A stretch of 64,000 bases of DNA from the sequence record MK962753.1; one strand, 5' to 3'. This document shows positions 3,810 to 64,000 of this stretch, in pieces. The stretch is from Shigella phage JK32. A program made the position numbers and the translations under genes. Every line of letters begins with the position of its first letter. Within the stretch, counting starts at the first letter, position 1. The notes under the pieces were generated by a model. That model saw only the letters and a program-made list of their open reading frames with translations. It was not told the origin of the DNA and ran no database searches.

Positions 3810-3889
3810 TACTGATTCCTCAAATGAAAATATTTATTAACAATTGTCGCTTTGCGACGTGCCGGAGGCACTGACTACTTTTTAACCGA

Positions 3890-3943
3890 AACAAATTTTT
3901 TATTATTCTAAAGATCTTTCTTCGTTTTGGTTATGTTTTAACC
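3890..3943. repeat. intergenic repeat copy A
   Basis: Same motif family as 44481..44540 and 44631..44690, in the divergent region between gene 3 and ORF 4000. Confidence 0.6.
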
Positions 3944-3999
3944 AATAACTATATTTTTATACAGTAATAAATAAAACGGGTACTATACGAGGACTTCTT

Positions 4000-4262: not shown

Positions 4263-4288
4263 CCCGTCATTGACGGGCTTAATTGTAT
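4263..4288. terminator. hairpin terminator, A-run one side and T-rich the other
   Basis: AGCCCGTCATTGACGGGCT hairpin between the convergent 84-aa ORF and gene 2. Confidence 0.5.
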
Positions 4289-4293
4289 GTAGT

Positions 4294-17326: not shown

Positions 17327-19125
17327 AACAATTAATTAATATCGGTAACGTTGTTGATGACGGTACAGGTGATTATCTAAGAAAAGGTGGTCAAAAGATT
17401 AATGACAACTTTTCTGAACTTTACACTAAGCTGGGGGATGGTGATATCCCTCATGCATCCGGCGCGTGGAAAACTCACACACAACCAGTATTAAAACCAA
17501 ATTTTGGTGATGCATGGGCGATTAATACAACGAACAACGCTGTTTCTGTTGAATTGCCTAAAGGAAGCGCGAGTGATTACAATAAAACAATTAAACTTCG
17601 TGATGTTTGGCGCTCATGGGCTGCACATAACGTAACATTGAAGCCAGCACAAGGTGATACCATTAAGGGATCTCCAATCGACCGTGAGTTGTATAAAGAT
17701 TTCATGGATGTTGAATTGGTTTATTGTGCGCCTGGACGTTGGGAATATGTCGAAAATAAACGAGTAGATACTATCACCACTTCCGATTTAAGCACAGTCG
17801 CTAAGGAAGTTTATATTGCAACCGAAGGACAAACAGACTTCCCCAATGTGTTTGGTTCCAATACTTACAATATTCGAAATGTTGAAGTGTATTATCGCGG
17901 TAACTTGCTTTATTATGGCAAGGATTTAACCGATGATTCTAACTATGGTTCAATCGGTGAAAACGGTGATATTGTTCCGCTGGACGGTAAAAGCATTAAA
18001 TTACGCTTCCCTTGTTCGGCTGGTGATACCATTCAAATCATCACTTATATGGACGGTATCGCATCCTTCCGGTCAAGCTATATTACTCATACAATCCGCG
18101 TTTATGAAACAGGAATGACCACTTTGGAATCCATCCCCGGTGAAGTTTGGGTTGGTGAACTAGCTAATAAGAAAGAATTTACTAATGCTGAATTAGGCGT
18201 AAGTAAGCGAGATCTTATTAATCCAAATTCATTTGAATTGCTGATCAACGGCACACAAATGATTAAAGCGGGTGATGCGGATTTACCTTCCTTTATTTGT
18301 GAAGGTGCTGACGGCGAAACAGAAGAAACTTGTGTACTTGCTGGCGGTCAATGGGTGGAATCTGGGGAAGATTATTCATTGATGTTCGACGAAAACAGCG
18401 TGGTGACTGGTATTAAATTATCTAAAGCACTAGATAACCGAGATACTATCACAATTCGCTGGTTTAATAATGATATCGGAACATTAATGGAATGGGACGG
18501 TGTAGGCGGTATTAAAGAAAAAGCAGATAAAATCTATCTTAATAACGAAGATGAAGTTACTCTGACAAATCGAATTGAATATACCGATTTCCAGAATCCA
18601 AGCCAAGCGACTAAACGCCCAATGGAAGATTATACAGGTCGTGTGATGGATATCTATTCCATATTCGATATTTTCTATCCTATAGGCACAATTTATGAAA
18701 ATGCGCATAACCCAGCTAACCCAGCGACCTATATGGGAGTTGGTACATGGGTACGTTATGCAGAAAAAGAATTTTTAGTTGGTTGGTCTTCTGACGCAAG
18801 CGATCAAAACTTCGCACTAAACAACAACGATCTTGATACACATGGTCAACCTACACACACCGCAGGTGGTAACGGTGGTGATGTTGCATACCAGATCAAG
18901 AAAAATATGATTCCTGAATTACAGAGCGACGATCGAGTTCTTGTAAAAGATGATAACGGAAATATTATTATTGGTGGTTGTCAGGTAGACCCTGATGCAG
19001 TAGGTCCAGCGTTTACCAAATATCGCGAAGATAATGTTAAAGTTAATCAGGGAAATACCGATCCATCAATGATTGGTATTCTTCCTCCATACAGAACTGT
19101 CTATCGTTGGCTAAGGGTAGGTTAA
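17323..19125 (+). CDS. 10: baseplate wedge / tail pin protein
   Basis: 600 aa (T4 gp10 about 602 aa); N-terminus resembles the gp9 N-terminus as in T4. Confidence 0.75.
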   Translation: MKQLINIGNVVDDGTGDYLRKGGQKINDNFSELYTKLGDGDIPHASGAWKTHTQPVLKPNFGDAWAINTTNNAVSVELPKGSASDYNKTIKLRDVWRSWAAHNVTLKPAQGDTIKGSPIDRELYKDFMDVELVYCAPGRWEYVENKRVDTITTSDLSTVAKEVYIATEGQTDFPNVFGSNTYNIRNVEVYYRGNLLYYGKDLTDDSNYGSIGENGDIVPLDGKSIKLRFPCSAGDTIQIITYMDGIASFRSSYITHTIRVYETGMTTLESIPGEVWVGELANKKEFTNAELGVSKRDLINPNSFELLINGTQMIKAGDADLPSFICEGADGETEETCVLAGGQWVESGEDYSLMFDENSVVTGIKLSKALDNRDTITIRWFNNDIGTLMEWDGVGGIKEKADKIYLNNEDEVTLTNRIEYTDFQNPSQATKRPMEDYTGRVMDIYSIFDIFYPIGTIYENAHNPANPATYMGVGTWVRYAEKEFLVGWSSDASDQNFALNNNDLDTHGQPTHTAGGNGGDVAYQIKKNMIPELQSDDRVLVKDDNGNIIIGGCQVDPDAVGPAFTKYREDNVKVNQGNTDPSMIGILPPYRTVYRWLRVG

Positions 19126-19126
19126 T

Positions 19127-19771
19127 ATGATTTCGAAAACACGTTCAAAAGCTAGTGTATTTTCCAGCGATGCGGCGTTTATTTCATACGATCCAGGATC
19201 GAAAGATCCTGTTATCGGTGGTTCTCGTCCTATTGGTGGTGTTAATGTCGATCAATCAAGAAAAGGTTCCTATGTAAACAACGTTCAATCTGCAATTGAT
19301 GACCTTTATTCATTGTCAATGATCCGAATTGGTGACGTTTTAGTAACAACAAATTCAACTGCACCACAATCGGCAGGGCAAATTGAAACATTAACATTTG
19401 CAGGAAGTGTTAATAATCAACATAACCCAGAAGCAAAGAAAGTATTAATTGATGTTTTGGGTTATCCATTTATTGTTGATGTTGGGTCTTCCGGCGTTTC
19501 TTTATGTGAGAAAGTAACGGAAAAATTTACCGAACTAATGAATAAAAACATTATGTTCAAAGAAGTAAAAAGAAAAGGAAGTAGCAACGATCAATTAGAA
19601 ATTCATTATATCGATTCTCTTGAACATCCACCAACCGATATTAACAAGTACGGAATTACAATCACAGGAAATGTTGATTCCCCTGCTCGTGTTGGTTATG
19701 GTTCATGGTCTCGCATGGGTACAGAAGAGAAATTTGGAACTACCCTATATTATTTCAAACGTATTGCATAA
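19127..19771 (+). CDS. 11: baseplate wedge / short tail fiber attachment protein
   Basis: 214 aa; synteny. Confidence 0.65.
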   Translation: MISKTRSKASVFSSDAAFISYDPGSKDPVIGGSRPIGGVNVDQSRKGSYVNNVQSAIDDLYSLSMIRIGDVLVTTNSTAPQSAGQIETLTFAGSVNNQHNPEAKKVLIDVLGYPFIVDVGSSGVSLCEKVTEKFTELMNKNIMFKEVKRKGSSNDQLEIHYIDSLEHPPTDINKYGITITGNVDSPARVGYGSWSRMGTEEKFGTTLYYFKRIA

Positions 19772-19782
19772 GGTGATGTATA

Positions 19783-21183
19783 ATGGCAAACAATACTATT
19801 AACCATGTAAAAGACGATGCTCAATACGTCAAGTTTAACCCTGTAAATGATTGGCCTCAAAGCATTACCAACGTACAAGCGGCTTTAGCCGCTATTAACG
19901 GCTTTGCCGTAAATGGATTACCGGACGCTACGGAAGATACAGCCGGGATCGCTGCAATCGCAACTCAGGAAGAAGTAAACGACGGTACAGTAGACAATAA
20001 GATCGTGACTCCAAAAACACTGGCGGTTAAAAAGTCACGTCCAGATGCCACAAAAGAAGTAAAGGGTATCACCCGATTTGCCACGATGGAAGAATCGCTG
20101 CAAGAGAGCAACGAGAACATGGCAATTGGTCCAGACACACTAAACCATTACTTCACCACTAAAAAGGCGTCAGAGAGCGTTCAGGGGACTATTAAGATAT
20201 GTTCTCTTGAGGCAGCAAAGATTGGCAGTGATGACACAATGGCAGTAACACCGAAAAAGATGCACACTGCCATTGCACAGATTGTACCCGGATTAATTCC
20301 AGATCAAAACACAGCAACCGAAAGCGCACAGGGTTTAGTTCAGTTAGCAACCAATGCGCAAGTTTTACAAGGCCAGATTCGAGAAGGTTTTGCAATTAGC
20401 CCTTATGCATTTGCAAATGCTCGCGCCAATGAGAATCAGGCGGGTACTGTTAAGATCGCCAGCCAGTCACAGATGAATGCTGGTTCAGATGATACTGTAG
20501 TTGTTTCTGCTAAGAAGTTTGCAAGCACTAAGGCAACAACGTCTCAATACGGTATTGTTAAACTACGAGACACCGTAGGAAGTGAGGCTAACGCTGCACT
20601 ATCAGCAAATGCTAAGGTTCTTCCTAGCACTGGCGGTACGGTAAGCGGAAACGTCTATAAAGGTTCTAACTCAGACGGCAACCAGTTTGTTACTAAAAAT
20701 GAATTAGCGAGTCACGCAATGCCAATTGGTGGTATTATCCTTTCTGGATTCAATGCTGATCGCGGTGACTTTCTGATCTGTAATGGTCGTTCACTGAATA
20801 AAAATCAATATCCGCAATTATTTTCTGCGATTGGTTATACCTTTGGTGGTTCAGGTAACAATTTTAACCTTCCTGATATGCGCGGTTTAGTTGCTCGTGG
20901 TTGCGATCATGGAAGAAACTTTGATCCATGCCGTCGATTTGGTTCTTATCAAGAAGACGCAATGCAGAGAATTACTGGTAAATTCCCTGTAGCTGACCGC
21001 TGGCGCGGTTGGTATGGTGGCGCATTTACTGCACAGCGCGGTCAATGGAGCACGAACTATAAAAACGGTGGGGGTGATGATTGGGGTTCTACTGTTAACT
21101 TTGACTCAGGAAGATCCGTAAGAACGGCTAACGAGACTCGCGTCAAGAGTCTGGCATTAAACTACATCATAAGGGTGCGCTAA
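19783..21183 (+). CDS. 12: short tail fiber protein
   Basis: 466 aa; repetitive Ala/Thr/Val-rich N-terminal half; synteny. Confidence 0.7.
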   Translation: MANNTINHVKDDAQYVKFNPVNDWPQSITNVQAALAAINGFAVNGLPDATEDTAGIAAIATQEEVNDGTVDNKIVTPKTLAVKKSRPDATKEVKGITRFATMEESLQESNENMAIGPDTLNHYFTTKKASESVQGTIKICSLEAAKIGSDDTMAVTPKKMHTAIAQIVPGLIPDQNTATESAQGLVQLATNAQVLQGQIREGFAISPYAFANARANENQAGTVKIASQSQMNAGSDDTVVVSAKKFASTKATTSQYGIVKLRDTVGSEANAALSANAKVLPSTGGTVSGNVYKGSNSDGNQFVTKNELASHAMPIGGIILSGFNADRGDFLICNGRSLNKNQYPQLFSAIGYTFGGSGNNFNLPDMRGLVARGCDHGRNFDPCRRFGSYQEDAMQRITGKFPVADRWRGWYGGAFTAQRGQWSTNYKNGGGDDWGSTVNFDSGRSVRTANETRVKSLALNYIIRVR

Positions 21184-37396: not shown

Positions 37397-37705
37397 ATGC
37401 ACACACTTATAAAGACCAAAACTCCCGCCGTGTCTGCACCAATTAGCTGCATTCATAGTACCCATATGACGGTACAAATGACAGTTGAAAGTGCTGTACA
37501 AGGGCAAAAAGTTGTCGCAGAGGCTGTTTTAGAAGGTTCTCTCGATGGCAAAGGTTGGTTCACTATTTCAGAATTGAAAGCTGATGGTAATGAATATGCA
37601 ACTGATGGTGGAGCGTTTGAAACATTATGGTCATTTATTCGGGCTAAGGTAAAATCATTATCCAATGGTTCTACCGTAAATGTGTATCTTGCGAAACGGG
37701 GGTAA
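37397..37705 (+). CDS. hypothetical small beta-rich protein (insert gene 1)
   Basis: 102 aa; AAGGGGAG RBS; downstream of the late promoter. Confidence 0.4.
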   Translation: MHTLIKTKTPAVSAPISCIHSTHMTVQMTVESAVQGQKVVAEAVLEGSLDGKGWFTISELKADGNEYATDGGAFETLWSFIRAKVKSLSNGSTVNVYLAKRG

Positions 37706-37708
37706 TGC

Positions 37709-39427
37709 ATGAAGCTAAATCCAGATGCGGTTATTAATGCTGGTTCTGTTGGCGGTGGTACTGGTTCCGGCGGTGGTGGTATTCAGGTCGGAACTAATGT
37801 ACCATGCGGAATTAAAAATACTCATCGTTTCGAAAATGAAGCTGAACGAGACGCATATTTTACCACTAAATTTGCGGAATTGGATCGCCTAAAAACAATT
37901 ATTGTTTGCGGTGGTAAACTTCAATTGTGGACAGGTGCGACTGCCGCATCACCTTATGATAATACCAAATGGGTCGATATGACCTGGGTAATTCAAGGAG
38001 AACAGGGTACTACTGGTGAAAAAGGCGAGAATGGACGAGGTATTGCCAGAATTGAAGCGCAAATCTCTGATGATGATCGCGAATGGAAACTAGAAATTAC
38101 CTACTCAGATTCTACCACAGAAACATTAACTTTCCCTGTACCTGATGTGTTAGCTAATGTTGCGCAACGTCTTACTGCATTAGAGGTAAGATGGACAGCA
38201 ACTGGTCAGCCAGTTAATAACCTTGATGCGACTGTAGATCAGGGTCGTTATCCGGTTGGAGATAACACATACGGTAAGCCACCAATGATGGCAAATAAGG
38301 GGTCTGCTGATGTATATGTCATTGAGGGTAGCATTATTCAAGTGGTTCGTTCTATTGACGGTGGCGTGTACTCTCGTATCCGACACAACGGTCATTGGAG
38401 CGAGTGGGTCTCGCAAAGTGGCGGTGGAAATGGTAGCGGTGGAGGCTTGACGGGTGATCAAGAAGCTATGTTAACTAGCTTAGTTAATCGTCTACCGGAA
38501 ATTTCACCAAATACACGCGATCTTAACACTCTACAGAAGCAAGGTCGTTTCTGTTATGATGAACGTACTACAAACCGCCCTAATGGTACTCAGGTACACG
38601 GGTCGGTAGATGTTCATGCTTGCAAAGATCATGTATTACAAATCGCAACCAGTCTCGATGGTGTCATGTCACATCGCGCACTGGACAAAGCAAACGGTAC
38701 ATGGTCTGAATGGTTGCAGATAAGCGATCATACTGGTGGGGCTACGATTTACGCGTTTCCTAGAGTTTCTAGTGTATTCACCACTTCGCAAAACTTGATT
38801 GAAGTCACAAAACCGGGCGCTGGATTCTTTTATATTCCGTGGAAATATGTTATTCATGATAACTATGGATGCACTCCACAGATCCAACACCCAGACCGTC
38901 AACAAGATGCGGATCATTGGTGGGTATGCCCGAAATCCGGTAGCTATGACATGGAATTATTGCTTGATATGAGTTTTATCAAGACACAAGCAACTATTCC
39001 GGTTCTTGCTGCTGTAACGGCATGGCACAGGAAAGCAGACGGAAGCGAGACAGAAGCCGCACGTTATCAAATCCCGTTTGATGTTACCCAGAAAAACCAG
39101 AAAACAAGATCCGCTAAACTCCGCATTAATAATTTGCCATCCGGCGAGATGATCCGCTGGCAGGTAAAACTCAGTGGTTATAGCTGGAGCGAAACTGATA
39201 ACCCAGACGTAGCATTTGCACCCTTCCGCACTATGCTGATGGTCGATGAAGCAGAATACGACACAGCAAAACGAATTGGTGCTCTTGCGTTCAATACATG
39301 GGCTAACTTCCATGCGAAAAAAGGTTTTGCTGCCGCTGTAAGTGAGGACGAAAATCAGAAAGCACGTCTTAACGCCGTTAAATGGGGTGCTGTCATTGAA
39401 TCCGTCCAAGCTCAGTCACAACCATAA
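37709..39427 (+). CDS. putative fiber-like protein with Gly-rich linkers and a short collagen-like motif
   Basis: 572 aa; GGGTGSGGGGI and GGGNGSGGGL linkers; five G-X-Y triplets (GEQGTTGEKGENGRG). Confidence 0.4.
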   Translation: MKLNPDAVINAGSVGGGTGSGGGGIQVGTNVPCGIKNTHRFENEAERDAYFTTKFAELDRLKTIIVCGGKLQLWTGATAASPYDNTKWVDMTWVIQGEQGTTGEKGENGRGIARIEAQISDDDREWKLEITYSDSTTETLTFPVPDVLANVAQRLTALEVRWTATGQPVNNLDATVDQGRYPVGDNTYGKPPMMANKGSADVYVIEGSIIQVVRSIDGGVYSRIRHNGHWSEWVSQSGGGNGSGGGLTGDQEAMLTSLVNRLPEISPNTRDLNTLQKQGRFCYDERTTNRPNGTQVHGSVDVHACKDHVLQIATSLDGVMSHRALDKANGTWSEWLQISDHTGGATIYAFPRVSSVFTTSQNLIEVTKPGAGFFYIPWKYVIHDNYGCTPQIQHPDRQQDADHWWVCPKSGSYDMELLLDMSFIKTQATIPVLAAVTAWHRKADGSETEAARYQIPFDVTQKNQKTRSAKLRINNLPSGEMIRWQVKLSGYSWSETDNPDVAFAPFRTMLMVDEAEYDTAKRIGALAFNTWANFHAKKGFAAAVSEDENQKARLNAVKWGAVIESVQAQSQP

Positions 39428-39439
39428 TGGGGGTGTATA

Positions 39440-40363
39440 GTGGAACATACAGGAAAAAGGTTGCTAGATCTTAGAAATGGTTTTAATCAGGGTGAAATCA
39501 CAGAAATCACTGGTATGCCAGCTAGTGCTCTCATGGAGGCAGACGTAGGCCGCATATCTAATCAAATCAACACCGAACTAATTGATCCGGTGATTGATTT
39601 TATTATTGCTTGCGATGAAGTTATCGCAAATGCAGCCGAGGATGCTTTAAACAAAGCCGAGAGCGCCGAGAGTATGGCAGAAGTCGCAGACCGAACGGCA
39701 GGTCAATCTATGAGCAAGGCAACCGATGCTCTAGACAAAGCGACGACCGCAGAATCGGAAGCAGGGCGAGCGCATGATCGCTTAGACAAGTTGAACATTC
39801 CACAAATCCCGAACTTAGACGGGCACACATGGAATTGGCTACCACGTTCTTTCGATAGCGTGTCTATTCAGTTGGGAAGCGGTATCACATTAGTTGATCC
39901 AGTGAACGGCAAGCCTCACATTACATGGACACCAATTAGACAGAACTACGAGACAGGAAGATATTACATCGAGGGTCGTTTTGAAGCCAGATTTAAAGTA
40001 ATGTTAATGGACTGGATTCAACAATCATCCGGTGGTCATATTTTCTATCTAGGTGGTGGTCAAAGTCTGGCATCATTTAACGGACGCGTGTCACTGGTGA
40101 ATATCTCGAATGATATAATGAAGCCGACTAATATACAAGTCAACGCATACACTGCCAAAGATACTCAGGTTATTTTCGGTGCGTGTGCTGATGCGGCAAT
40201 TTCAACATCAAGGGAAGTTAAACTAGCTTTCATGGTTGATACTGGAACAGATAAATTTGACCGATATAATGATCCTGTATATGTTGATTTGGTAATGACA
40301 TTCCAACGCGACGGGGAAGGAAATTTCGGATTCGGAAATCTTTTCCCAAGCCTAAATCCTTGA
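39440..40363 (+). CDS. putative fiber/decoration protein (N-terminal domain shared with the 614-aa ORF)
   Basis: 307 aa; N-terminal 90 aa alignable with ORF 40421 (LIDPVIDFIIACDEV vs LITPVIDFINECDNI). Confidence 0.4.
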   Translation: MEHTGKRLLDLRNGFNQGEITEITGMPASALMEADVGRISNQINTELIDPVIDFIIACDEVIANAAEDALNKAESAESMAEVADRTAGQSMSKATDALDKATTAESEAGRAHDRLDKLNIPQIPNLDGHTWNWLPRSFDSVSIQLGSGITLVDPVNGKPHITWTPIRQNYETGRYYIEGRFEARFKVMLMDWIQQSSGGHIFYLGGGQSLASFNGRVSLVNISNDIMKPTNIQVNAYTAKDTQVIFGACADAAISTSREVKLAFMVDTGTDKFDRYNDPVYVDLVMTFQRDGEGNFGFGNLFPSLNP

Positions 40364-40368
40364 TCCTA

Positions 40369-40400
40369 TTGTCGGGGAGAAATCCCCGACAACGTTTTCT
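40369..40400 (+). terminator. rho-independent terminator / attenuator
   Basis: TTGTCGGGGAGAAATCCCCGACAA hairpin followed by CGTTTTCT. Confidence 0.5.
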
Positions 40401-40420
40401 AATATCAACGAGGATATGAT

Positions 40421-42265
40421 ATGTTAAGAAACCGTGCAATCAAGTCAACCCCTAATTTCATTCAAGGGGATATGGGAAATATTACCTCAAGAGATAATCA
40501 TGCATTAATGGAGCATGATATTCCAACAATCTCTGACACAATTAACAGGGATCTAATTACACCAGTAATTGATTTTATCAACGAATGCGATAATATTCTA
40601 CTCGATGGAATCGGGACGGTCGCAGATACTGTTGATATTATCGAACGGAAAGCTGATAATGCAACCGAAATTTCTAATTACGCCAGTGAAAAAGCTATCG
40701 AGGCATTGGCAAAATCAAAAGAAAGTTTGACGAAAGCGGAAGAAGCAAACACGGTAGCAAATAGTGTTGCTGGTGATGCGCAAACAGCATTAACTAAAGC
40801 TAATGAGGCTAAAACGCTAGCAGAAAGTCTTAAAACAAAAGTTGATGGTTATGACACCAGAATCACAGAAATTGATTCTAAGGCAACTACAGCTCAATCT
40901 GACGCGTCTTTAGCAAAAGATAAAGCTGATGCACTGGAAACAACGGTCAATAGCGAGAAAACTAAACTGACAGCATTGACTACTAAGGTCGATACTCTAG
41001 AAGGTGATATTATCGATGCTGTGGATCTGGCTGAACAAGCAAAGAATAAAGCCGATTCAGTAGAAACACAAGCCATTAATAACACCACAGAGATTACCGC
41101 TTTAAAAGGCCGTGTATCAACTGTAGAGACACAATCAGCAGAAGCCAATAGACTGGCTACCCAAGCCGATAAAAATGCGTCTACGGCGCTCTCAGACGTT
41201 TCTACGTTATCTTCAAAGGTTGATGATGTTAAGGCTACAGCCGACGCAGCAAGCGCAAGCGTGGCGGGATTAACTCAGGATATCGGAGAAGTGCGGACAC
41301 TGGCAGAAACAGCCACGACAAACATCACAACTCTTTCCGGTAAAGTTGATACCATAAAGACAACCGCAGATACAAACAAGACCAATATTGAAGCATTAAC
41401 CACTCAGGTTAATGAACACACAACTAAGATCGGAGAGTTGGAAACTGGTGTATCTAACGTTAATGGTGAACTTACCACGGTTCAGGAAACCGCAGCTAAT
41501 GCACTTCAAAAGGCCACCAGCGCAGAAACAAAGGCAGGTAATGTAGAGACACTAATTAATAGTCTTACACCGCGTGTGGACGCGTTAGAAGGCGATTTAG
41601 GTACATTAGAGAGCACTGTTGCTGATTTATCTCCTAAAGTGACAGCAGCAACCGAAAAAGCGACTATGGCATTCAACAAAGCAACTGCCTTAGAGCAAAA
41701 AACGGAATCGATGGAAACAGAAATCGAAGATGTTCGCCTCGATGCTGGGACCGCGATGGCAGAAGCGACACAAGCTAATAGTGAGATCGCCACGTTAAAA
41801 ACTAAAGTCGGTGAACTGGAAAGCGATGTTGACACAGCCGATACAATCGCAAATGAAGCATTAGCAGTTGCACAAAGGGCGGATACTAATGCAAATACAG
41901 CCAATACAAATCTTGCAACGATAACACCAATCGTGGAAAGATTGAATGGTGCATTTGTCGGTATGATTCGAATCAGATACAAGGAAACTCGAACTATAAC
42001 GAAAGCTGGCGGCAACACTCGTCGTAAGTTGATAATCCCACAAGTTCGAAAAGGTGATATGGCATTTGCGGCATTTTTAAACGTACCAGATAAACGAGAT
42101 AGTATTCTGTTTAACTGTATGATTCCTGTCGACGGCGAAGTTCACATGGCAATAAAAAATCTGCATACCGCTGCATTAGATTTTAACGATTGGGTTCAAA
42201 TATTGGTATTCCAGACAAGTACGGGTAATCCTATTGTTGACCCAGAAACAAGCCTAACAAACTAA
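40421..42265 (+). CDS. putative coiled-coil fiber protein with tandem repeats and distinct C-terminal domain
   Basis: 614 aa; about 400 aa of repetitive Ala/Thr/Glu-rich heptad sequence; N-terminus paralogous to ORF 39440. Confidence 0.45.
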   Translation: MLRNRAIKSTPNFIQGDMGNITSRDNHALMEHDIPTISDTINRDLITPVIDFINECDNILLDGIGTVADTVDIIERKADNATEISNYASEKAIEALAKSKESLTKAEEANTVANSVAGDAQTALTKANEAKTLAESLKTKVDGYDTRITEIDSKATTAQSDASLAKDKADALETTVNSEKTKLTALTTKVDTLEGDIIDAVDLAEQAKNKADSVETQAINNTTEITALKGRVSTVETQSAEANRLATQADKNASTALSDVSTLSSKVDDVKATADAASASVAGLTQDIGEVRTLAETATTNITTLSGKVDTIKTTADTNKTNIEALTTQVNEHTTKIGELETGVSNVNGELTTVQETAANALQKATSAETKAGNVETLINSLTPRVDALEGDLGTLESTVADLSPKVTAATEKATMAFNKATALEQKTESMETEIEDVRLDAGTAMAEATQANSEIATLKTKVGELESDVDTADTIANEALAVAQRADTNANTANTNLATITPIVERLNGAFVGMIRIRYKETRTITKAGGNTRRKLIIPQVRKGDMAFAAFLNVPDKRDSILFNCMIPVDGEVHMAIKNLHTAALDFNDWVQILVFQTSTGNPIVDPETSLTN

Positions 42266-42294
42266 TTAATTTCATCAACTATAGGGGAATTAAC

Positions 42295-42447
42295 ATGAGC
42301 AAGAAAAAAGATAGCTATGTTCAAATTACCAAGAAACAGTATGATGAATTAATGTTAGCGGTGGCCTATGCCATAATGCGATCTGATTTGGCGATCCAGC
42401 AAATCGAAAAGACAAATAAAAGTCTTGAGAATGTAGCAGCAAATTAA
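42295..42447 (+). CDS. hypothetical small protein (50 aa, below the ORF-track cutoff)
   Basis: Read by eye: AGGGGA RBS, ATG at 42295, MSKKKDSYVQITKKQYDELMLAVAYAIM..., stop at 42445; followed by terminator. Confidence 0.3.
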   Translation: MSKKKDSYVQITKKQYDELMLAVAYAIMRSDLAIQQIEKTNKSLENVAAN

Positions 42448-42453
42448 TTTTTT

Positions 42454-42485
42454 GGGGAATCCTTAACTGGATTCCCCTTTCTTTT
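42454..42485 (+). terminator. rho-independent terminator
   Basis: GGGGAATCCTTAACTGGATTCCCC hairpin followed by TTTCTTTT. Confidence 0.6.
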
Positions 42486-43772: not shown

Positions 43773-44360
43773 CTAAATATCTAACCAAGACAAATCAGAT
43801 CCGCCCAAGATTTTTTCAACGGCGGATCTATTTTCTTGATGATACAAGTTAAAGCATGGTATCCCATGTCTACGAGCAACATAAACAGCAATTCGAGTCC
43901 CGCCAGAAACAATCCCATTAACTTCTTTCGCCCAAAATAACACACAATCTACAGGATCATCAAGTGTCTCACCTAAGACTTGAGCAACATTTCTAGAAAA
44001 CAGATTTTGCATGTATAACGGTATAGAACGAGGATTATCATAAACGTGTTCTAATTCATCCATCGCCAGATTTTTTTGTTCTAAGGTTTGCCATGCAATC
44101 ACATCATGACCGTTATGCTTGTGGTCATAAAACTTCCAATTTGGAATGAAAATTTTTCTATAATCTGGATCGTAATACTTCATGAAAGCATTGTCCATAC
44201 CGTAAGCCCCTCCAGAATGCGCTACAACGCGATTTTCTGACAATACCCTCCCAATGGTACTAGCCATTATCAAAATGTCGCTAGGCGCTTTTCTAGAGCC
44301 GATTAAAGCACATCTACGAAGCGGTTTTACTCCAACTAGATCTTGTAACTGGTCAAACAT
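43773..44360 (-). CDS. DprA/Smf-like (SLOG-type Rossmann) protein
   Basis: 195 aa; motifs ALIGSRKAP and HSGGAYGMDNA resemble the DprA Rossmann-domain GSR and SGxAxGxD motifs. Confidence 0.45.
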   Translation of the reverse strand: MFDQLQDLVGVKPLRRCALIGSRKAPSDILIMASTIGRVLSENRVVAHSGGAYGMDNAFMKYYDPDYRKIFIPNWKFYDHKHNGHDVIAWQTLEQKNLAMDELEHVYDNPRSIPLYMQNLFSRNVAQVLGETLDDPVDCVLFWAKEVNGIVSGGTRIAVYVARRHGIPCFNLYHQENRSAVEKILGGSDLSWLDI

Positions 44361-44383
44361 AATATTTCCTCCATAGAAAGCAA

Positions 44384-44412
44384 TATCATACTACAAGTTA
44401 ATAACAAATACA
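44384..44412 (-). promoter_or_regulatory. sigma70-like promoter candidate (TTGTAT-17-TATGAT)
   Basis: Minus strand, about 25 nt upstream of the DprA-like gene RBS. Confidence 0.4.
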
Positions 44413-44480
44413 AGTATCCGCGTAGCGGAAGCGAGCACAGCGAGCAATAAAACACTTCCAGTAATTGATTAATAAATGTT

Positions 44481-44540
44481 CGAAACAAATTTTTATTATT
44501 CTATAAGATAAGTCTTCGTTTTGATCATAATTTAATCATA
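44481..44540. repeat. intergenic repeat copy B
   Basis: Shares AAACAAATTTTTATTATTCTA with 3890..3910 and TCTTCGTTTTGATCATAATTTAATCA with 44663..44688. Confidence 0.6.
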
Positions 44541-44609
44541 CATGTAAAAACTACACAAAAGGATATCGCTTCGCGAACTCCTACGGAGTATAACATTTGT
44601 GTTACAATA

Positions 44610-44628
44610 TGTATTGATTAATAATTAA
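44610..44628. promoter_or_regulatory. perfect 19-bp palindrome TTGATTAAT-A-ATTAATCAA (possible dimeric protein-binding site)
   Basis: Exact inverted repeat; a further half-site TTGATTAAT at 44464..44472. Confidence 0.4.
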
Positions 44629-44630
44629 TC

Positions 44631-44690
44631 AAAGATACATTTTCTATGTTCTAAAGATCTTTCTTCGTTTTGATCATAATTTAATCAAAC
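44631..44690. repeat. intergenic repeat copy C
   Basis: 24-nt identity TTCTAAAGATCTTTCTTCGTTTTG with 3906..3929 and 26-nt identity with copy B. Confidence 0.6.
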
Positions 44691-44735
44691 AGTATTAATA
44701 TTGTGCACATGTAAACTAAAATTATGTTAATAACA

Positions 44736-44761
44736 GATACAAAAAAGCCGCCCCGAAGGAC
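44736..44761 (-). terminator. rho-independent terminator
   Basis: AGCCGCCCCGAAGGACGGCT hairpin with T-run on minus strand; member of a three-copy terminator family. Confidence 0.5.
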
Positions 44762-44773
44762 GGCTAATGTTAA

Positions 44774-45211
44774 TTATTTGTTGATAACGATCTGATTTCG
44801 GCGAATGGTAACATTACTCTTAGAGATGATCAGATCATCCGGCACTACGTTAGTTTTGTATGGCTGGAAGCGAACAAGCATCTGATTGCGTTTAGACCCT
44901 TCCTTAATCTTGATTTCCATCTGGATATTGTTGCCTACGTGAGCAACCGCAATTTCACCTTTATTCTCATAGACCCACTTGCTGGTAACGTCTCCAGCAA
45001 AAGCCTTAATAACTTGCAATGCTTCGTCGTATGCGGTAGAGCTGTGAACTTTCAGAAGGCCAGCCGTCGCCAGACGTGAGCAAGTGATCGCCGGAGACTG
45101 CCAAACATCAACATTAATTTGCTCAATCAGAGTAACACCGCCCTGATCAACTGCTTTGAATGCTTCGAACATTGCTTTTTTCATTGCTACGTGGTTTTTA
45201 CGGAATTTCAT
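44774..45211 (-). CDS. hypothetical protein
   Basis: 145-aa ORF downstream of a consensus sigma70 promoter. Confidence 0.4.
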   Translation of the reverse strand: MKFRKNHVAMKKAMFEAFKAVDQGGVTLIEQINVDVWQSPAITCSRLATAGLLKVHSSTAYDEALQVIKAFAGDVTSKWVYENKGEIAVAHVGNNIQMEIKIKEGSKRNQMLVRFQPYKTNVVPDDLIISKSNVTIRRNQIVINK

Positions 45212-45884: not shown

Positions 45885-45914
45885 AAAACAAAAAAGCCAC
45901 CCCGAAGGATGGCT
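45885..45914 (-). terminator. rho-independent terminator after hoc paralog
   Basis: AGCCACCCCGAAGGATGGCT hairpin with long T-run on minus strand. Confidence 0.55.
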
Positions 45915-45925
45915 GATAGATTTCA

Positions 45926-47167
45926 TTAAGCAGGAGGCGTTTCACGAATGCGTAGAACTCGCTCTAACGTCTCTCGGTCCAGTTTATGGAAATCTTTGGA
46001 CTGATACATGAAACCATTGCGAGATTCCATGCAAGTGCAATCACTATATTTTTCTTCCGCTGCTGCGATCGTCTCCAGATCTTTGGCGTACTTGCTGGTT
46101 GAATAAACTTCTCGGTGACGCCACTCTAAACCAGCCTCATTGAATTTAACAATCTCGTCAAATACCCACCATCCAATATAGATGAATGAAGTTTTGCGCC
46201 ACGGGATCGGGTGCACGTAACGGAACATTTTATGAAGAGATTCAACAACTTCCATTGAACACTTTCTGCTTGTATGTGCTGCAACTTCTACTGTTGCGCT
46301 TTCGATCTGTTGGTATAATTTAGCAACACACCAGAATTTGGCTGTGTCATCGTAAGTAGCACGCTCTTTGAACAGATGACCGTCTGGCATGATAGAAAAT
46401 CCTTCCAGTGCTTCGCCGACCTCACTACCGATCAGAGTCGGTGACGGCTGTCCTTCACGTTGCAAATACCAGTTATGTTTGATAGTCAATTTAGGCATAC
46501 CGCTAGAATCGCCTACAATGTCCTCTGATACAACATAATTAAGTAAGATTTCCTTACCTAGTGCTACGGTCTTTGATTCCACCACATCCTGATCTACGCT
46601 CATTGTAGCCAGCATGATTTTAGTCGATGCACTATCGGCTGAATCTTCCGATTCGCCCCATACTTTGACAGTATACACACCGTTGTTATCTGCTGTAAAT
46701 TCTTGGATCGTGATATCCTGTGTTGTGTCTATAACTTCTTCGCCCTTACTCCAACTATAATGTAGTTCATAGTTGTCTGTTGGAGTCTTCCCGCCAGAGA
46801 ATTTGACGGTTGCGTGTAATTCTACGTCTGTGTGAGTAGGAACATAGAATTGCGGCGGTTCGGTGATCTTAACGATTAATTCAGCTTCTTCCATACGGAA
46901 AACGTCAGATTCTACAGATTCCCCGCTGTCGGTATCTTGTACGGTGACTTTATAGTTACCCGCATTTTCACTTGTTGCACCTGCTACAGTTAGCGTAGCG
47001 GTGTTATTTTCATGCGGTTTGTTGTCTTTTGTCCATGTATAGGACAAATTGCTGGGTAATGGTTCGTCACCTGCTACAGTCGCTGTTAATGTGAAACCAT
47101 CTCCAGCAAGAAAACATCTTTTGTTCGATTTAATTGATACTGTGAAAGCCATATAAAGCCACTCCAT
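45926..47167 (-). CDS. hoc: Hoc-like outer capsid decoration protein (paralog 1)
   Basis: 413 aa; Ig-like repeats; C-terminal YVHPIPWRKTSFIYIGWWVFDEI...ESRNGF matches the T4 Hoc capsid-binding C-terminus. Confidence 0.7.
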   Translation of the reverse strand: MEWLYMAFTVSIKSNKRCFLAGDGFTLTATVAGDEPLPSNLSYTWTKDNKPHENNTATLTVAGATSENAGNYKVTVQDTDSGESVESDVFRMEEAELIVKITEPPQFYVPTHTDVELHATVKFSGGKTPTDNYELHYSWSKGEEVIDTTQDITIQEFTADNNGVYTVKVWGESEDSADSASTKIMLATMSVDQDVVESKTVALGKEILLNYVVSEDIVGDSSGMPKLTIKHNWYLQREGQPSPTLIGSEVGEALEGFSIMPDGHLFKERATYDDTAKFWCVAKLYQQIESATVEVAAHTSRKCSMEVVESLHKMFRYVHPIPWRKTSFIYIGWWVFDEIVKFNEAGLEWRHREVYSTSKYAKDLETIAAAEEKYSDCTCMESRNGFMYQSKDFHKLDRETLERVLRIRETPPA

Positions 47168-47191
47168 ATAAAAGCCGACCCGAAGGTCGGC
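47168..47191 (-). terminator. rho-independent terminator between hoc paralogs
   Basis: GCCGACCCGAAGGTCGGC hairpin with T-run on minus strand. Confidence 0.5.
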
Positions 47192-47201
47192 GTTTAATTA
47201 A

Positions 47202-49742
47202 TTAAAATAGTTGAGTACCATCAACCAGATAACCATTACGAGATTCCAATACATGAGTATTAGAATAGTGATGCAACGAGGCTGCAATAGTCTCGATCTC
47301 GTCCGGGTATTTGGTGTGTTCAAAGTCTTCTAACCAGTTAAGCCCTTCGCGGTTGCAACGGTCAATTTCATCAAGTACCCAATAGCCTTGATACTGGAAC
47401 GAAGTACGACGCCACGGAATCGGGTGTACATAGCGTTTTAATTTCGCGGTAGTAAACACTACACGAACTTTTTCACTATGTTTAACATGTCCTTCGTCGT
47501 CAGTAACTTCTGCATAATAGGTTGCTTGATGTGTCTCCTTGCTAATTTGTTCTTTAGGAATAGTATACACCTTACTATTCGCGCCAGGAATAACAGTATC
47601 TTTACCGCCCTGAATTTTATGCCACTTCCATTGAACTTCTTTTTCATCATCAACGTGTTCGGCATGAGCTTCTAAGGTAATATCCTGTTTCTGTCCTTCT
47701 TTAGCAACCACATCCACCGGATGTTTCAGAATATTGATATTTGAATGATGAGTCATTGTCACTAATGCAGGATTAGATTCAATGGTATTCTCACCAGCCG
47801 TAATTACCGCTGTGTAGCTGCCTACGTCAGACGGTTTTGCGTGATCAATAATCAACACATCTGAATTTGCACCAGGAATAATTTCACCGTCTTTTTTCCA
47901 TTGATATGATGGTTTAATACCAATAGATGTTTGTGCGGCAGCGTGTAACATAATTTTTTCATTATATTTCACATGCGCATCTTGTGGGTGAGTTGTTATT
48001 GCTAGGTCATTTGGAACAACCGTTACATCGTCGGAGATCAACACCCTAACCGCTTCTGACATTTTAGAAACTCGATGTTCACCGAATCCAGCCGATACAC
48101 GGCATGTATAAACGCCAGTAGATGTTAATTGTGCATGATCTTCGCCATATACATTTCGTTGTTCAATTCCTGCTGGGAAAAGATCCTCACCATCTTTAAA
48201 CCAACGGTAACGAACTGGCAAAGCATCATTAGACGTTGCCTTGATGGTAAGCGCCCATTGTCCACCGGAGCGAACTTTAACTGCTTTCGGTTGTACAGTG
48301 ATCTCTAACGTTGCCTTTGAGTTATCAACTGTCACCTGAACTGCATTAGACTCAGCCGAAATTCTGTGATTCTGGATACCCATAGAAACTTTACATTTAT
48401 ATTGACCTTCGTCTGCTTTAGTGATTGAGGAAAAATGCAAAGTTTTAGATGTTTTTCCAGGAATCAACTCATCATTTTTATACCACTGATAATCAAGTTT
48501 ATAATGTTCGTAGTCTGTCTCTGCTTCACAAATAAGAGTTTGTGAGGAACTAACTCGAACATTGGTTAACTGCTGTGGTTGTTGAGTGATTCGAATTGTT
48601 GGCGCAGCACCGACAAGAAGATCCGCTTCTTGTGATTCTGAAACCATATTATCACCGTAAGTCACTTTTGCTTTATATTTCGCCTGATTTAATTCCGCAG
48701 TTGCTGGTGCAATGTGGAGATCTTTATTAGTTGCGCCAACAATTGGTTTAAATTCATCTTCACCATTTTTCTTGATGTACCATTGAACTTTTACTGGTTC
48801 ATAGTTTGTTGCATAATCAACACTGAACAAACCTAAAGCACCAGCACCCACATTTATTGTGAGTGGTTGTTTAGTGAATCGAAAGAACGATCGACCTTCG
48901 ACTGTAACGTGACAATCTTTTGAATAGATCGTTGTTTCTGCTTGACGAACTTCAAGACGCCATACACCCTCGTCTTTTTTCGTGACGTGGGTTATAGTTA
49001 ATGCAGTGCCGTCTTGATCCAACACCATCCTATCGTTGTGAATCCACACATATGATAAAGGACGAGTTTTGTCATCGGTTGTCACCTGTGCTTGTAGTTC
49101 AAGTCTTCCATCTTCTGGAACTGTAACCGCTGATGGGTAATGTTCCTGAATATGAACTTTAGGAGCATCTTTATTTTGTTCCACTACTACAGGACTGATC
49201 CAATAGTGAGAACGTGCATCATCGGTAACAAATACCTTACAAGTATAGTTGCCAAAATCCTCATAACCAACTCGATCTACATGCACGTTTTTTTGACGGA
49301 TTTTATCTGGATTTAACTGAATGTGGTTTTTATACCAAATAGTATCAAATTGCTTGTTATCTTCGATGAACGGAGTAACAAAAATATCCAATTCTTCGCC
49401 TAAACGCTTATAAATGTAGGTCGGAGATTGATCCTGTGGTGCAAGGAAGGTGCGACGTTCAACAAGAATAGGCTTAATATCAACCGATTCAAGCGGATTA
49501 TCTTTCAGCTTAACTTTCGCTGTATACGTGCCGAATTGATCTTGAGTCATTTCAGCAATATACAGAGATTGATCTGGTTCTGCAACCTGATCTGATGGTA
49601 CGCTTTGACCGTTTAGCTTCCATTCTACGATATAGTCTTTAAAATCTGCGGTACTTACTACGAGCTTAAGAACAAGTTCATGTCCTACAGACGCGTAGAC
49701 CGGACCCATAGTTTGATGTAAAATATTGATTTTATCAGACAT
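47202..49742 (-). CDS. hoc: Hoc-like outer capsid decoration protein, expanded (paralog 2)
   Basis: 846 aa; multiple tandem Ig-like segments; C-terminal LKRYVHPIPWRRTSFQYQGYWVLDEI...ESRNGY Hoc-type domain. Confidence 0.7.
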   Translation of the reverse strand: MSDKINILHQTMGPVYASVGHELVLKLVVSTADFKDYIVEWKLNGQSVPSDQVAEPDQSLYIAEMTQDQFGTYTAKVKLKDNPLESVDIKPILVERRTFLAPQDQSPTYIYKRLGEELDIFVTPFIEDNKQFDTIWYKNHIQLNPDKIRQKNVHVDRVGYEDFGNYTCKVFVTDDARSHYWISPVVVEQNKDAPKVHIQEHYPSAVTVPEDGRLELQAQVTTDDKTRPLSYVWIHNDRMVLDQDGTALTITHVTKKDEGVWRLEVRQAETTIYSKDCHVTVEGRSFFRFTKQPLTINVGAGALGLFSVDYATNYEPVKVQWYIKKNGEDEFKPIVGATNKDLHIAPATAELNQAKYKAKVTYGDNMVSESQEADLLVGAAPTIRITQQPQQLTNVRVSSSQTLICEAETDYEHYKLDYQWYKNDELIPGKTSKTLHFSSITKADEGQYKCKVSMGIQNHRISAESNAVQVTVDNSKATLEITVQPKAVKVRSGGQWALTIKATSNDALPVRYRWFKDGEDLFPAGIEQRNVYGEDHAQLTSTGVYTCRVSAGFGEHRVSKMSEAVRVLISDDVTVVPNDLAITTHPQDAHVKYNEKIMLHAAAQTSIGIKPSYQWKKDGEIIPGANSDVLIIDHAKPSDVGSYTAVITAGENTIESNPALVTMTHHSNINILKHPVDVVAKEGQKQDITLEAHAEHVDDEKEVQWKWHKIQGGKDTVIPGANSKVYTIPKEQISKETHQATYYAEVTDDEGHVKHSEKVRVVFTTAKLKRYVHPIPWRRTSFQYQGYWVLDEIDRCNREGLNWLEDFEHTKYPDEIETIAASLHHYSNTHVLESRNGYLVDGTQLF

Positions 49743-62820: not shown

Positions 62821-63939
62821 TTACATTTTAAATTTATCTGGCATTGCGTCTACAGATACCAGATCAGCGATAAGCTGACGTAGAGTTGCCTTATCTGCTT
62901 TCTTACGTTCGGTTTTAGCTTCGGTAATAAAGCTGGAGAAAGACAGGTCAGAAGCAGGTTTAACAACACCTTCACGGATGAATGCATCACCGTCCGCGAT
63001 CATCTCGCCAGATTCTTGTAATGCTGCCAGTTCATTTTTGTTCATAATATGTGCCTCAATGTAATAAGTTTCTTGTGAATCCGTCGATGCCGTAGCACGA
63101 GTTACCGTATCAAAGGATAACACAACACCGCGAGGAAGTAAAATCTCGCATTCTTTGTAAGCAAATGCTTTGTTACCTACTGGCAATACGGGGATGTTTT
63201 CCGCGCCAGCAATGGAGAAAGCAACATTAGCGCCACCTTCACCGCGAGATCCAGCCATAGAATCTACACCAGCAACGGCACTAGCCACGTTTGCATTCCA
63301 GCCGCCAAAAATGTTAGGTGCAAGGGAAGTGCTCACATAGTTTTTAAAGTAAAACGCTTTTTGCTTACGTGCAGTTTCCCACATTTGCGACCGGAAGTCC
63401 ATACCACGATACAGAATAGTACCAGGATCAAGTTTAACGCCATAGTTGGAGAAGGCATTATCCAGTGCATCGCACATCTTGACCAATTCTTCTGGATCTG
63501 CGATGCCTTCAAACTCTTCCAGCTTACGGTCGGTTAGGAAGTTGTTCATATTGATGTATGCTGCATCGGCATATTCGCTCAACACAAAACCTTCCGCGCC
63601 CGGCAGATCAAGATCAATATCTGCCATCATTTCACCCATGTTGCTAGCAATTGCTTCAAACATACCGGAAGCAACATTACGTAGGGCATCGGTTTTAATC
63701 TGTGTGATGTGACTACGCAGCATTTCAGCTTTTACATCTGCTGGCATAGACTGGTCTACTCGATCCATTGCCAGGGCGGTGATCTTGTTTTCGAATACTT
63801 CCTCGCTCATGATTTCTTTTAAGCGTTTGATTGATGCTGCGATAACTTCCGCAGACAACGGATCATATTGATCCTGAACTTTTACCAGTTCGCTTACTGC
63901 ATATTTTGCATCGGCTTCGCTTTCAAAAATAGTACGCAT
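62821..63939 (-). CDS. mono-ADP-ribosyltransferase (R-S-E type, Alt/Mod-like), paralog 2
   Basis: 372 aa; motifs LYRGMDF, YVSTSLAP, KECEILLPRG; C-terminal domain alignable with paralog 1. Confidence 0.6.
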   Translation of the reverse strand: MRTIFESEADAKYAVSELVKVQDQYDPLSAEVIAASIKRLKEIMSEEVFENKITALAMDRVDQSMPADVKAEMLRSHITQIKTDALRNVASGMFEAIASNMGEMMADIDLDLPGAEGFVLSEYADAAYINMNNFLTDRKLEEFEGIADPEELVKMCDALDNAFSNYGVKLDPGTILYRGMDFRSQMWETARKQKAFYFKNYVSTSLAPNIFGGWNANVASAVAGVDSMAGSRGEGGANVAFSIAGAENIPVLPVGNKAFAYKECEILLPRGVVLSFDTVTRATASTDSQETYYIEAHIMNKNELAALQESGEMIADGDAFIREGVVKPASDLSFSSFITEAKTERKKADKATLRQLIADLVSVDAMPDKFKM

Positions 63940-64000
63940 GAAACCATAGCGAGTGATAATATCACTTGTCCAGTCATTCAGAGAACGAGCGGTTGAACGT

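Follow-up and report, generated by a model that had tools for sequence, protein, structure and literature searches.

A selected intergenic cassette family in Krischvirus genomes: a tentative transcription-punctuation element with a homologue in an Escherichia coli prophage

What does a phage keep in 413 bp from which genes are absent? This question is raised by the spacer between two open reading frames (ORFs), ORF165 and ORF164, of Shigella phage JK32 (record MK962753.1), of which a stretch of 64,000 nucleotides, hereafter the window, was analysed. An earlier note on this DNA had pointed to repeats shared between the spacer and a second intergenic region near 3.9 kb, and to a perfect palindrome. 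It was verified here that both regions carry members of one family of intergenic cassettes, which are apparently real, selected and previously undescribed cis-elements, and a broad literature search on the element found nothing relevant. The favoured explanation, with a rough probability of 0.35, is that each cassette punctuates transcription and provides a weak promoter, in the manner of the PeSL (promoter-early stem-loop) cassettes of the same phages, and that it also recombines. By its matching phage records, the window belongs to Krischvirus, the RB49/Phi1/JSE/GEC-3S group of T4-type coliphages: the spacer region and its flanks share 97.7-98.1% identity with the best of 58 matching phage records, all of which are Krischvirus and lie at 95-99%, and the spacer locus is about 98% identical to Phi1, ECD7 and GEC-3S.

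A repeat search of the window returned one 81-nt family, at 3872-3952, 44466-44546 and 44615-44695, in the same orientation throughout. Within it, TTCTAAAGATCTTTCTTCGTTTTG occurs exactly at 3906-3929 and 44649-44672, and TCTTCGTTTTGATCATAATTTAATCA at 44513-44538 and 44662-44687, with 0 such matches expected for either (100 shuffles). The 24-mer thus joins the 3.9-kb and 44-kb regions as the earlier note had claimed of both repeats, whereas the 26-mer is confined to the two local copies and is missing from the one at 3.9 kb. The repeated unit is also larger than had been described, about 100-125 bp once its two GC hairpins are included. From an alignment of the copies with their flanks, and then of 37 distinct sequences, a common anatomy was obtained (Table 1): on the plus strand, arbitrarily taken as "forward", each unit opens with two short GC hairpins (hp1 and hp2), followed after 10-45 nt by an 80-bp core of about 20% GC (core GC 0.20-0.21; repeat length 81-110 nt), in a genome of about 40% GC. 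The end of the core is a nearly invariant TTCTA-AAGAT-NNN-TCTTCGTTTTG, and then a 7-5-7 hairpin, TTGRTYA-N5-TAAYCAA; such 7-5-7 palindromes occur twice per cassette, about 56 bp apart. The 19-bp palindrome TTGATTAATAATTAATCAA to which attention had been drawn does exist, at 44614-44632 and so 4 nt away from the 44610-44628 first given, and its extra half-site lies at 44465-44473 rather than 44464-44472. However, it proved the least conserved part of the element: it is perfect only in the window and in one IMG/VR contig, which points to weak constraint, and reads GTGATTAATAATTAACCAA in Phi1, ECD7, LF73P4 and others.

Table 1. Cassettes and associated features; positions are those of the window unless another record is named.
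Feature	Position	Strand	Details
Cassette a	3846-3947	plus	between gene 3 (minus) and ORF130 (plus)
Cassette a, hp1	3846-3858		GTCGC-TTT-GCGAC
Cassette a, hp2	3859-3871		GTGCC-GGA-GGCAC
Cassette a, AT-rich core	3872-3947		perfect 7-bp hairpin TTGGTTA-TGTTT-TAACCAA at 3927-3945
Late promoter of gene 3, flanking cassette a	3839-3832	minus	AATAAATA
Late promoter of ORF130, flanking cassette a	3966-3973	plus	AATAAATA
Cassette b	44417-44541	plus	start 149 bp from cassette c start
Cassette b, hairpin	44417-44429		TCCGC-GTA-GCGGA
Cassette b, GC-rich direct repeat	44430-44446		AGCGAGCA, twice
Cassette b, half palindrome	44465-44483
Cassette b, AT-rich core	44496-44541		right hairpin TTGATCA-TAATT-TAATCAT at 44521-44539
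Cassette b, candidate weak sigma-70 promoter	44498-44527	minus	TGATCA 44527-44522, 18 nt, TAGAAT 44503-44498
Cassette c	44566-44690	plus
Cassette c, hp1	44566-44576		TCGC-TTC-GCGA
Cassette c, hp2	44577-44589		ACTCC-TAC-GGAGT
Cassette c, left 7-5-7 palindrome	44614-44632
Cassette c, AT-rich core	44645-44690		AAAGATCTTT at 44653-44662; right 7-5-7 hairpin TTGATCA-TAATT-TAATCAA at 44670-44688
Cassette d	Phi1 149914-150035	inverted	between genes 35 and 36; outside the window
Spacer	44361-44773		413 bp, between ORF165 and ORF164, both minus; Phi1 98765-99177
ORF165	44774-45211	minus
ORF165 intrinsic terminator	44740-44765	minus	hairpin 44746-44765, AGCCGTCC-TTCG-GGGCGGCT, then T-run 44740-44745
ORF164, DprA-like protein	43773-44360	minus	adjoins gene 24 end
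ORF164 proximal upstream	44361-44416	minus	TTGTAT 44413-44408, 17 nt, TATGAT 44390-44385; Shine-Dalgarno (SD) GGAGG 44372-44368; ATG 44360
Prophage ORF-free hub	18926-20192 of extracted locus		E. coli H2 chromosome NZ_CP028733.1
LF73P4 a/d hybrid junctions	~56.8 kb and ~141.4 kb of OZ035795.1

A whole-genome search for the motif, as the earlier note had proposed, was run on Phi1 and gave exactly four copies, all intergenic. The fourth, cassette d, shares 92% identity with cassette a over about 105-110 bp, both hairpins included. Matches to the cassette repeat were present in 58 of 58 Krischvirus records, at 231 places or about four per record; three places are listed for kvi, in which an assembly gap covers copy a. 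The four copies all lie within or at the edge of virion-gene modules. Given these counts, and with the ORF164/ORF165 locus intact in 58 of 58 records, a mobile spread like that of miniature inverted-repeat transposable elements was considered unlikely. In pattern scans for distant relatives, IMG/VR and metagenomes yielded only Krischvirus, the prophage family described below and chance matches, while GTDB genomes yielded none or one chance match.

Evidence that the cassettes matter to the phage comes from their variation. Among six full-length genomes, pairwise diversity in the spacer was 0.010 (10 of 413 sites vary), compared with 0.037 at third codon positions of ORF164 (17/195) and 0.046 at those of ORF165 (16/145), the values at first and second codon positions being 0.005 and 0.001; the spacer is therefore about four times less variable than neighbouring synonymous sites. 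In the hairpins, hp2 is GTGCC/GGCAC in copies a and d versus ACTCC/GGAGT in copy c, which amounts to two compensatory pair changes, and its loop varies by genome (GGA, GTA or TAC), with a G·T pair in one genome. Likewise, at pair 4 of the 7-5-7 hairpin, 12 of the 37 distinct sequences have GC, 20 have AT and 5 have GT, and the loops vary freely. The aligned copies indicate that the hairpins are kept as structures while their sequence changes, and they argue clearly for selection on the cassette. The earlier suggestion of a shared functional element is thus supported by the kept copy number, the low diversity, the compensatory hairpin changes and a homologue in a prophage.

This homologue was found by matches of the core to 53 of 5426 complete E. 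coli genomes, at about 80-82% identity over 75-76 bp and always in unannotated DNA, as well as to about 25 IMG/VR prophage contigs. It is located in a 1.3-kb ORF-free stretch, here called the hub, between divergent operons of an uncharacterised prophage that is integrated at hicB and carries a Rha regulator and a gpA-type terminase. The arrangement matches that of the phage cassettes: tandem GC hairpins (ATCCC-TTC-GGGAT and GCAACC-TTC-GGTTGC), unrelated in sequence to the phage hairpins, come first, the core follows 12 nt after the pair, and a third hairpin with variable loops comes next; two prophage variants have still other hairpins at the same site. The first rightward gene starts about 150 nt downstream of the core homologue. 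The hub also holds GATTAATAATTAATCAA, which is the window palindrome minus its ends, about 950 bp from the core homologue, and an iteron-like array in which CCTACACTA occurs at least 5 times. Repeated GAAAGGNATT boxes, each followed by GC hairpins, were observed there too. Among isolated phages, only Krischviruses match the hub, via the 76-bp core. An Rfam covariance search of the hub gave no match, and the neighbouring prophage proteins gave no informative family matches. The hub may hold the origin or immunity region of that phage. The product of the first gene downstream of it, 155 aa long and very acidic in its tail, may belong to the early anti-defence type. Co-transfer of the cassette with its downstream gene was rejected, since ORF130 and the 155-aa protein are unrelated.

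The obvious comparison for a repeated intergenic unit in these phages is with the PeSLs. RB49 and Phi1 contain about 50 of these cassettes, strong sigma-70 consensus promoters with polyG/polyC stem-loops, which terminate, initiate and recombine, and whose recombination is experimentally known (Arbiol et al. 2010, PMC2839356; see also Comeau et al. 2014, PMC4122927); the loci studied here are absent from the text of PMC2839356. When Phi1 was scanned for sigma-70 matches of at least 11/12, 70 sites were recovered, many with the PeSL signature, and none in a cassette. The PeSLs in Phi1 read aaaaagttgTTGACA-ggggatc..gatcccc-TATAAT-acacacATCGAAACGA, and two typical examples are situated a short distance upstream, at Phi1 100289 and 99717. 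A canonical PeSL or early promoter was therefore discarded, because these obvious PeSLs differ and because TTGACA, 16-18 nt, TATAAT is absent from the cassettes. A late promoter inside the core was discarded as well, there being no WATAAATA in it, and late promoters being placed just outside copies a and d: those of gene 3, ORF130 and gene 36 abut these two cassettes. Copies c and b are located 3' of the ORF165 terminator and 5' of ORF164, which has no consensus early or late promoter. The proposal of a promoter family was consequently not supported in its plain form, as no copy has a sigma-70 consensus or a TATAAATA late promoter inside the core in either orientation.

A weaker promoter was sought at the conserved positions. 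Consensus scans of the cassettes revealed nothing at a conserved promoter register, and the best sigma-70 candidates by eye were TTGGTT-17-TATATT in copy a and TnAnCA-17/18-TAGAAT. On the gene-sense strand, that is, the one leading to ORF164, gene 3 and gene 36, TAGAAT stands 17-18 nt from the poor -35 TnAnCA; downstream, the sequence is AU-rich up to the two hairpins, behind which there is a T-rich tail. At the same register, copies a, b and d and the prophage have TAGAAT, one prophage variant has TATAAT, and copy c has TAGAAC (44653-44648). TAGAAT could thus be a weak promoter, below the threshold of the consensus scan. The opposite strand also contains -10 hexamer candidates, with worse -35s. 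Two forward promoters were rejected: TTGRTN-16/18-"-10", because its -10 is not conserved among copies and prophage indels of 0-3 nt fall between the boxes, and TTCTAA-17-GATCAT, because its key -11 A is replaced by G in copies a and d as well as in some variants of the prophage.

As to termination, the hairpin pairs stand between an A-rich and a T-rich run, and a loose terminator scan flags copy a hp1, the copy b hairpin and copy d hp1/hp2, on opposite strands, with minimal stems and interrupted tails. In contrast, genuine terminators in this genome combine stems of 8-9 bp with T6 tails, and that of ORF165 is far stronger than the cassette hairpins, which have 4-5 bp, are not polyG/polyC and stand 10-45 nt from the core. 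The cassettes accordingly resemble bidirectional intrinsic terminators in their GC hairpins with A-rich and T-rich flanks, and differ from them in their 4-5-bp stems and weak T-tracts.

Compared with the PeSLs, the cassettes belong to the same phages, form a repeated intergenic AT-rich tract of about 100 bp with stem-loops, share the leader box CATCAAAACGAA on their reverse strand, and are proposed to combine termination, initiation and exchange. Unlike the PeSLs, they have neither the TTGACA/TATAAT consensus nor a polyG/polyC stem, number four instead of about 50, occur in virion-gene regions rather than mostly in hyperplastic ones, and have a homologue in a temperate prophage. Moreover, whereas a PeSL has an ORFan with SD and start directly 3' of it, only copy a faces an ORFan, ORF130, whose late promoter intervenes. 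A second comparison is offered by the REP and BIME elements of bacteria (repeated extragenic palindromes), which are short, paired, GC-rich intergenic hairpins conserved as structures, and to which roles in mRNA stabilisation, weak termination, protein binding and rearrangements have been ascribed. The cassettes share with them the paired short GC hairpins in intergenic DNA, kept structurally. However, REPs number in the hundreds in bacterial chromosomes and have no 80-bp AT-rich core, whereas the cassettes have four copies and such a core, and no sequence similarity was found.

On these grounds, the favoured explanation remains that of a PeSL-like cassette for transcription punctuation with a weak promoter, which follows the logic of PeSLs in a different sequence family. 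In gene-sense order (ORF164, gene 3 and gene 36), it would consist of the 7-5-7 hairpin that opens the AT-rich core of about 80 bp, TAGAAT, the AU-rich stretch and the two GC hairpins. The back-to-back hairpins would damp read-through both ways between adjacent early and late transcription units, and the AT-rich core would give weak initiation by the host polymerase; for ORF164, the core would possibly be the sole promoter downstream of the strong ORF165 terminator. With their length of about 100 bp and their similarity, the copies would also be substrates for homologous exchange. Terminator or insulator activity, promoter activity and the recombination role are all read from the sequence, and several points weigh against them. 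No copy has a convincing promoter, the best gene-sense match being 3/6 + 5/6, and TAGAAC in copy c has lost the key final T. If this were a promoter, it would be odd for the best-conserved block, TTCTTCGTTTTG, to serve only as its spacer. Efficient termination is doubtful, considering that the hairpins have 4-5 bp and T-tracts that are weak or non-adjacent, and a terminator seems unnecessary for copy a, between divergent genes. Relative to the flanking genes, either orientation gives a consistent picture: the plus one points at a gene in copy a and the prophage, the opposite one at genes in copies a, b and d. In addition, the selection test rests on few substitutions, because the compared genomes are close (about 98% identical), and the LF73P4 arrangement discussed below could be an assembly error at repeats.

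Four other explanations were weighed, each of them less probable than punctuation. The one ranked second, itself unlikely, takes the cassettes for small-RNA genes. In one version, a gene-sense transcript starting after TAGAAT would give an RNA of 60-100 nt whose 5' part is AU-rich and which ends, after two GC hairpins, in a U-rich tail; in the other, a forward-strand RNA with CUUUCUUCGUUUUG(A/G)U and the 7-5-7 hairpin would be antisense to early mRNAs, CUUUCUUCGUUUUG(A/G)U being the exact antisense of CAUCAAAACGAA, a box near the 5' end of many PeSL-driven early mRNAs, with which the RNA would pair and so help to shut off or tune early genes. In the forward version, transcription would cover the most conserved block, and three independent changes (in the 7-5-7 hairpin of prophage variants, in the same hairpin of LF73P4 copy c and in hp2 of TB34) give G·U, not A·C, on that strand, although the outer pair of copy d hp1 and the left palindrome of copy c favour the other one. 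The maintenance of hairpin structure under changing sequence would also suit an RNA, yet single-sequence folds are unremarkable (z +0.5 to -3.4), neither strand has a credible promoter or clean intrinsic terminator, and a long-range dyad, CGAAACAAA/TTCGTTTTG, was dropped as a conserved stem because the prophage homologue lacks it. For 38 early leaders, the mean energy of predicted forward-strand duplexes is -12 to -13.8 kcal/mol; shuffled modules give -7.9 to -9.4 and the reverse strand -5.7 to -7.3. However, fairly good pairing of the pyrimidine-rich strand was obtained with late leaders too (-9.5 to -11.5). Since the reverse strand is like PeSL early leaders (CATCAAAACGAA...CTTT...AGAATC), the forward strand is their natural antisense, and the predicted pairing could reflect ancestry, function or both. 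The covariance-model scan for non-coding RNAs that the earlier note had proposed was run with Rfam 15 and brought no family at gathering score, only terminator-driven noise (Ysr49, 23.9 bits, gathering 95); no tRNA, tmRNA or known non-coding RNA was found. The more specific claim, that short plus-strand RNAs with an invariant 5' CUUUCUUCGUUUUGRU are antisense to the CAUCAAAACGAA box of dozens of early mRNAs, is quite improbable. More doubtful than small-RNA genes in general is the explanation ranked third, by which the 7-5-7 palindromes TTGRTYA-N5-TAAYCAA and the invariant block would be operators for a dimeric DNA-binding protein of host or phage, which would regulate adjacent genes or organise DNA. 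Exact or near-exact sites are found at 3927, 44521, 44614 and 44670, with a weaker one at 44465, and GATTAATAATTAATCAA recurs in the prophage hub; unrelated phages that infect one host share the element, which suggests a host factor, and protein binding would explain why the promoter "spacer" is conserved. Nevertheless, the left palindromes are degenerate in most genomes, and since the two arms covary, base pairing is a better fit than a fixed protein half-site. No match to the consensus of IHF, FNR, Fur, DnaA or CRP was recognised by eye, and the pattern with at most 2 mismatches is only modestly enriched across the window (15 found versus 6.2 expected).

Ranked fourth, and more doubtful still, is the view that the cassettes are sequence-defined replication origins of the genus, built on the T4 type and acting, as in T4, as recombination hotspots as well: a promoter would fire into the AT-rich unwinding element, an R-loop would prime the leading strand, and the GC hairpins would bound the unwound zone. 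Minimal T4 oriF and oriG consist of a promoter and an AT-rich DNA unwinding element, and T4 origins coincide with recombination hotspots, three of them near strand-switch regions (PMC3016281). A core of about 20% GC in a genome of about 40%, within a unit of about 100 bp, matches this description, as do the multiple copies, the syntenic neighbourhoods and the association with recombination, to which the LF73P4 junctions at the repeat and the iteron array that shares an ORF-free stretch with the prophage homologue may be added. Three cassette loci are about 1-6 kb from counterparts of the markers of T4 oriE (gene 5/repEA), oriF (uvsY) and oriG (gene 34), but this nearness is loose, with chance roughly estimated at 0.01-0.03, and copy d is 5 kb from the strand switch. 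T4 origins need a MotA middle promoter and share no common motif; Krischviruses have no MotA (PMC1524935), which requires a different construction of their origins. No credible promoter leads into the core, the weak TAGAAT candidate pointing into part of the AT-rich element. The least likely explanation is that of a functionless repeat, for instance a decayed fragment of an early-gene leader or PeSL, which arose by duplication and horizontal transfer and persists through recent divergence. It would fit a reverse strand that is like PeSL leaders without SD and ATG, the TAGAAC and decaying palindrome of copy c, and the close relatedness of all compared genomes. It is opposed by the low variation of the spacer relative to adjacent synonymous sites, by the genus-wide maintenance of four copies per genome, by the compensatory hairpin changes and, in the prophage, the replacement of hairpins by different ones, and by a core that is 82% conserved between unrelated phages.

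Recombination at the cassettes, suggested by the earlier note as a hotspot, obtained circumstantial support from hybrid junctions in the LF73P4 assembly and from homing-endonuclease genes beside copy a. In that assembly (OZ035795.1), the hairpins of the gene 3 side are connected, exactly in the repeat, with the terminator of gene 35, and a reciprocal junction exists as well. Relative to Phi1, LF73P4 has four breakpoints, at copies a and d and at PeSLs near Phi1 42.6 and 123.7 kb, which represent either two successive nested inversions between inverted repeats or misassembly at collapsed repeats; both alternatives agree with the identity of the two junction copies over about 80 nt. The gene 3-ORF130-gene 2 locus is a homing-endonuclease hotspot, with genes inserted on either side of copy a: a GIY-YIG gene follows ORF130 in Phi1 (62925-63956), ECD7, Skers and pEJ01, with none in the window (4284-4303), and in one IMG/VR contig a 177-aa ORF (2148-2681), which carries a TTGACA promoter of its own and whose product looks HNH/AP2-like, separates gene 3 from the cassette hairpins and directly adjoins the latter. 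Three records from three countries, kvi (MN850615), Skers (MW748999) and pEJ01 (OP114734), are all linearised at window position 3963/3964, 11-16 nt after cassette a and 36 nt before the ORF130 ATG. This shared start may reflect a physical end or nick, a break introduced by the assembler or the copying of a convention; kvi lacks about 800 bp spanning gene 3 and cassette a, and in the pEJ01 paper PhageTerm was used and no terminus was reported.

The 413-bp spacer itself comprises the ORF165 terminator, cassettes c and b, a variable 44-nt stretch and a conserved 56 nt 5' of ORF164. A check of both strands agreed with the earlier note that it holds no ORF of at least 60 aa: its longest frames are a TTG frame of 50 aa, overlapping the start of ORF164, and two of 23 aa. 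A tRNA search of the spacer was empty, again as had been reported. GEC-3S and Phi1 have no annotated coding sequence in it, and only the ORF165 terminator is annotated in relatives' records. A hidden small gene was rejected, considering the absence of ORFs above 50 aa and of coding sequences in relatives, and hairpin-loop indels in the prophage that are not multiples of three. The ORF165 terminator scored 8 pairs, 6 of them GC, with the tail TTTTTTGT, and GEC-3S annotates a terminator there; the repeat-family search detected similar terminators at 45888-45917 and 47166-47195. In the 56 nt proximal to ORF164, only 1 site varies among 8 genomes, and TTGTAT-17-TATGAT (3/6 + 5/6 match) may be a promoter-like site of this gene. 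A 17-nt direct repeat, GTTAATAACA(A/G)ATACAA, is present at 44397-44413 and 44726-44742 of the window; on the minus strand (TTGTATNTGTTATTAAC) it lies 3' of both the ORF165 terminator and the cassette b hairpin, and a -10-like box comes after the proximal copy only.

Some observations concern the neighbouring genes. Gene 24 (plus) and ORF164 (minus) converge at 43772/43773 without spacer or terminator, so that late transcripts of genes 23-24 would run antisense through ORF164 as far as the cassette b hairpins. Between genes 23 and 24, about 5 kb (37405-42456) replace 457 bp of Phi1 and contain four ORFs on the plus strand (102, 572, 307 and 614 aa), of which the last is a long coiled-coil with tropomyosin-like and alanine-zipper matches and the others have no Pfam match. 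At 47202-49742 (minus), where Phi1 has about 60 bp, an 846-aa protein with several immunoglobulin-like domains is encoded beside hoc (45926-47167), and it may be a second, larger Hoc-like capsid decoration protein.

RB49-like phages are devoid of the T4 middle-mode apparatus, and the timing of their gene expression and the start of their replication are poorly understood. A selected, non-coding cassette of fixed copy number, which abuts late promoters and is common to an E. coli prophage, therefore represents a concrete and cheap target. If the antisense claim were true, these MotA-less phages would have a trans-acting RNA switch that shuts off or tunes a whole class of early genes. If, as LF73P4 may suggest, the inverted copies a and d drive an 87-kb inversion, this would bear on genome stability and on the quality control of assemblies in Krischviruses, which are used in therapy cocktails.

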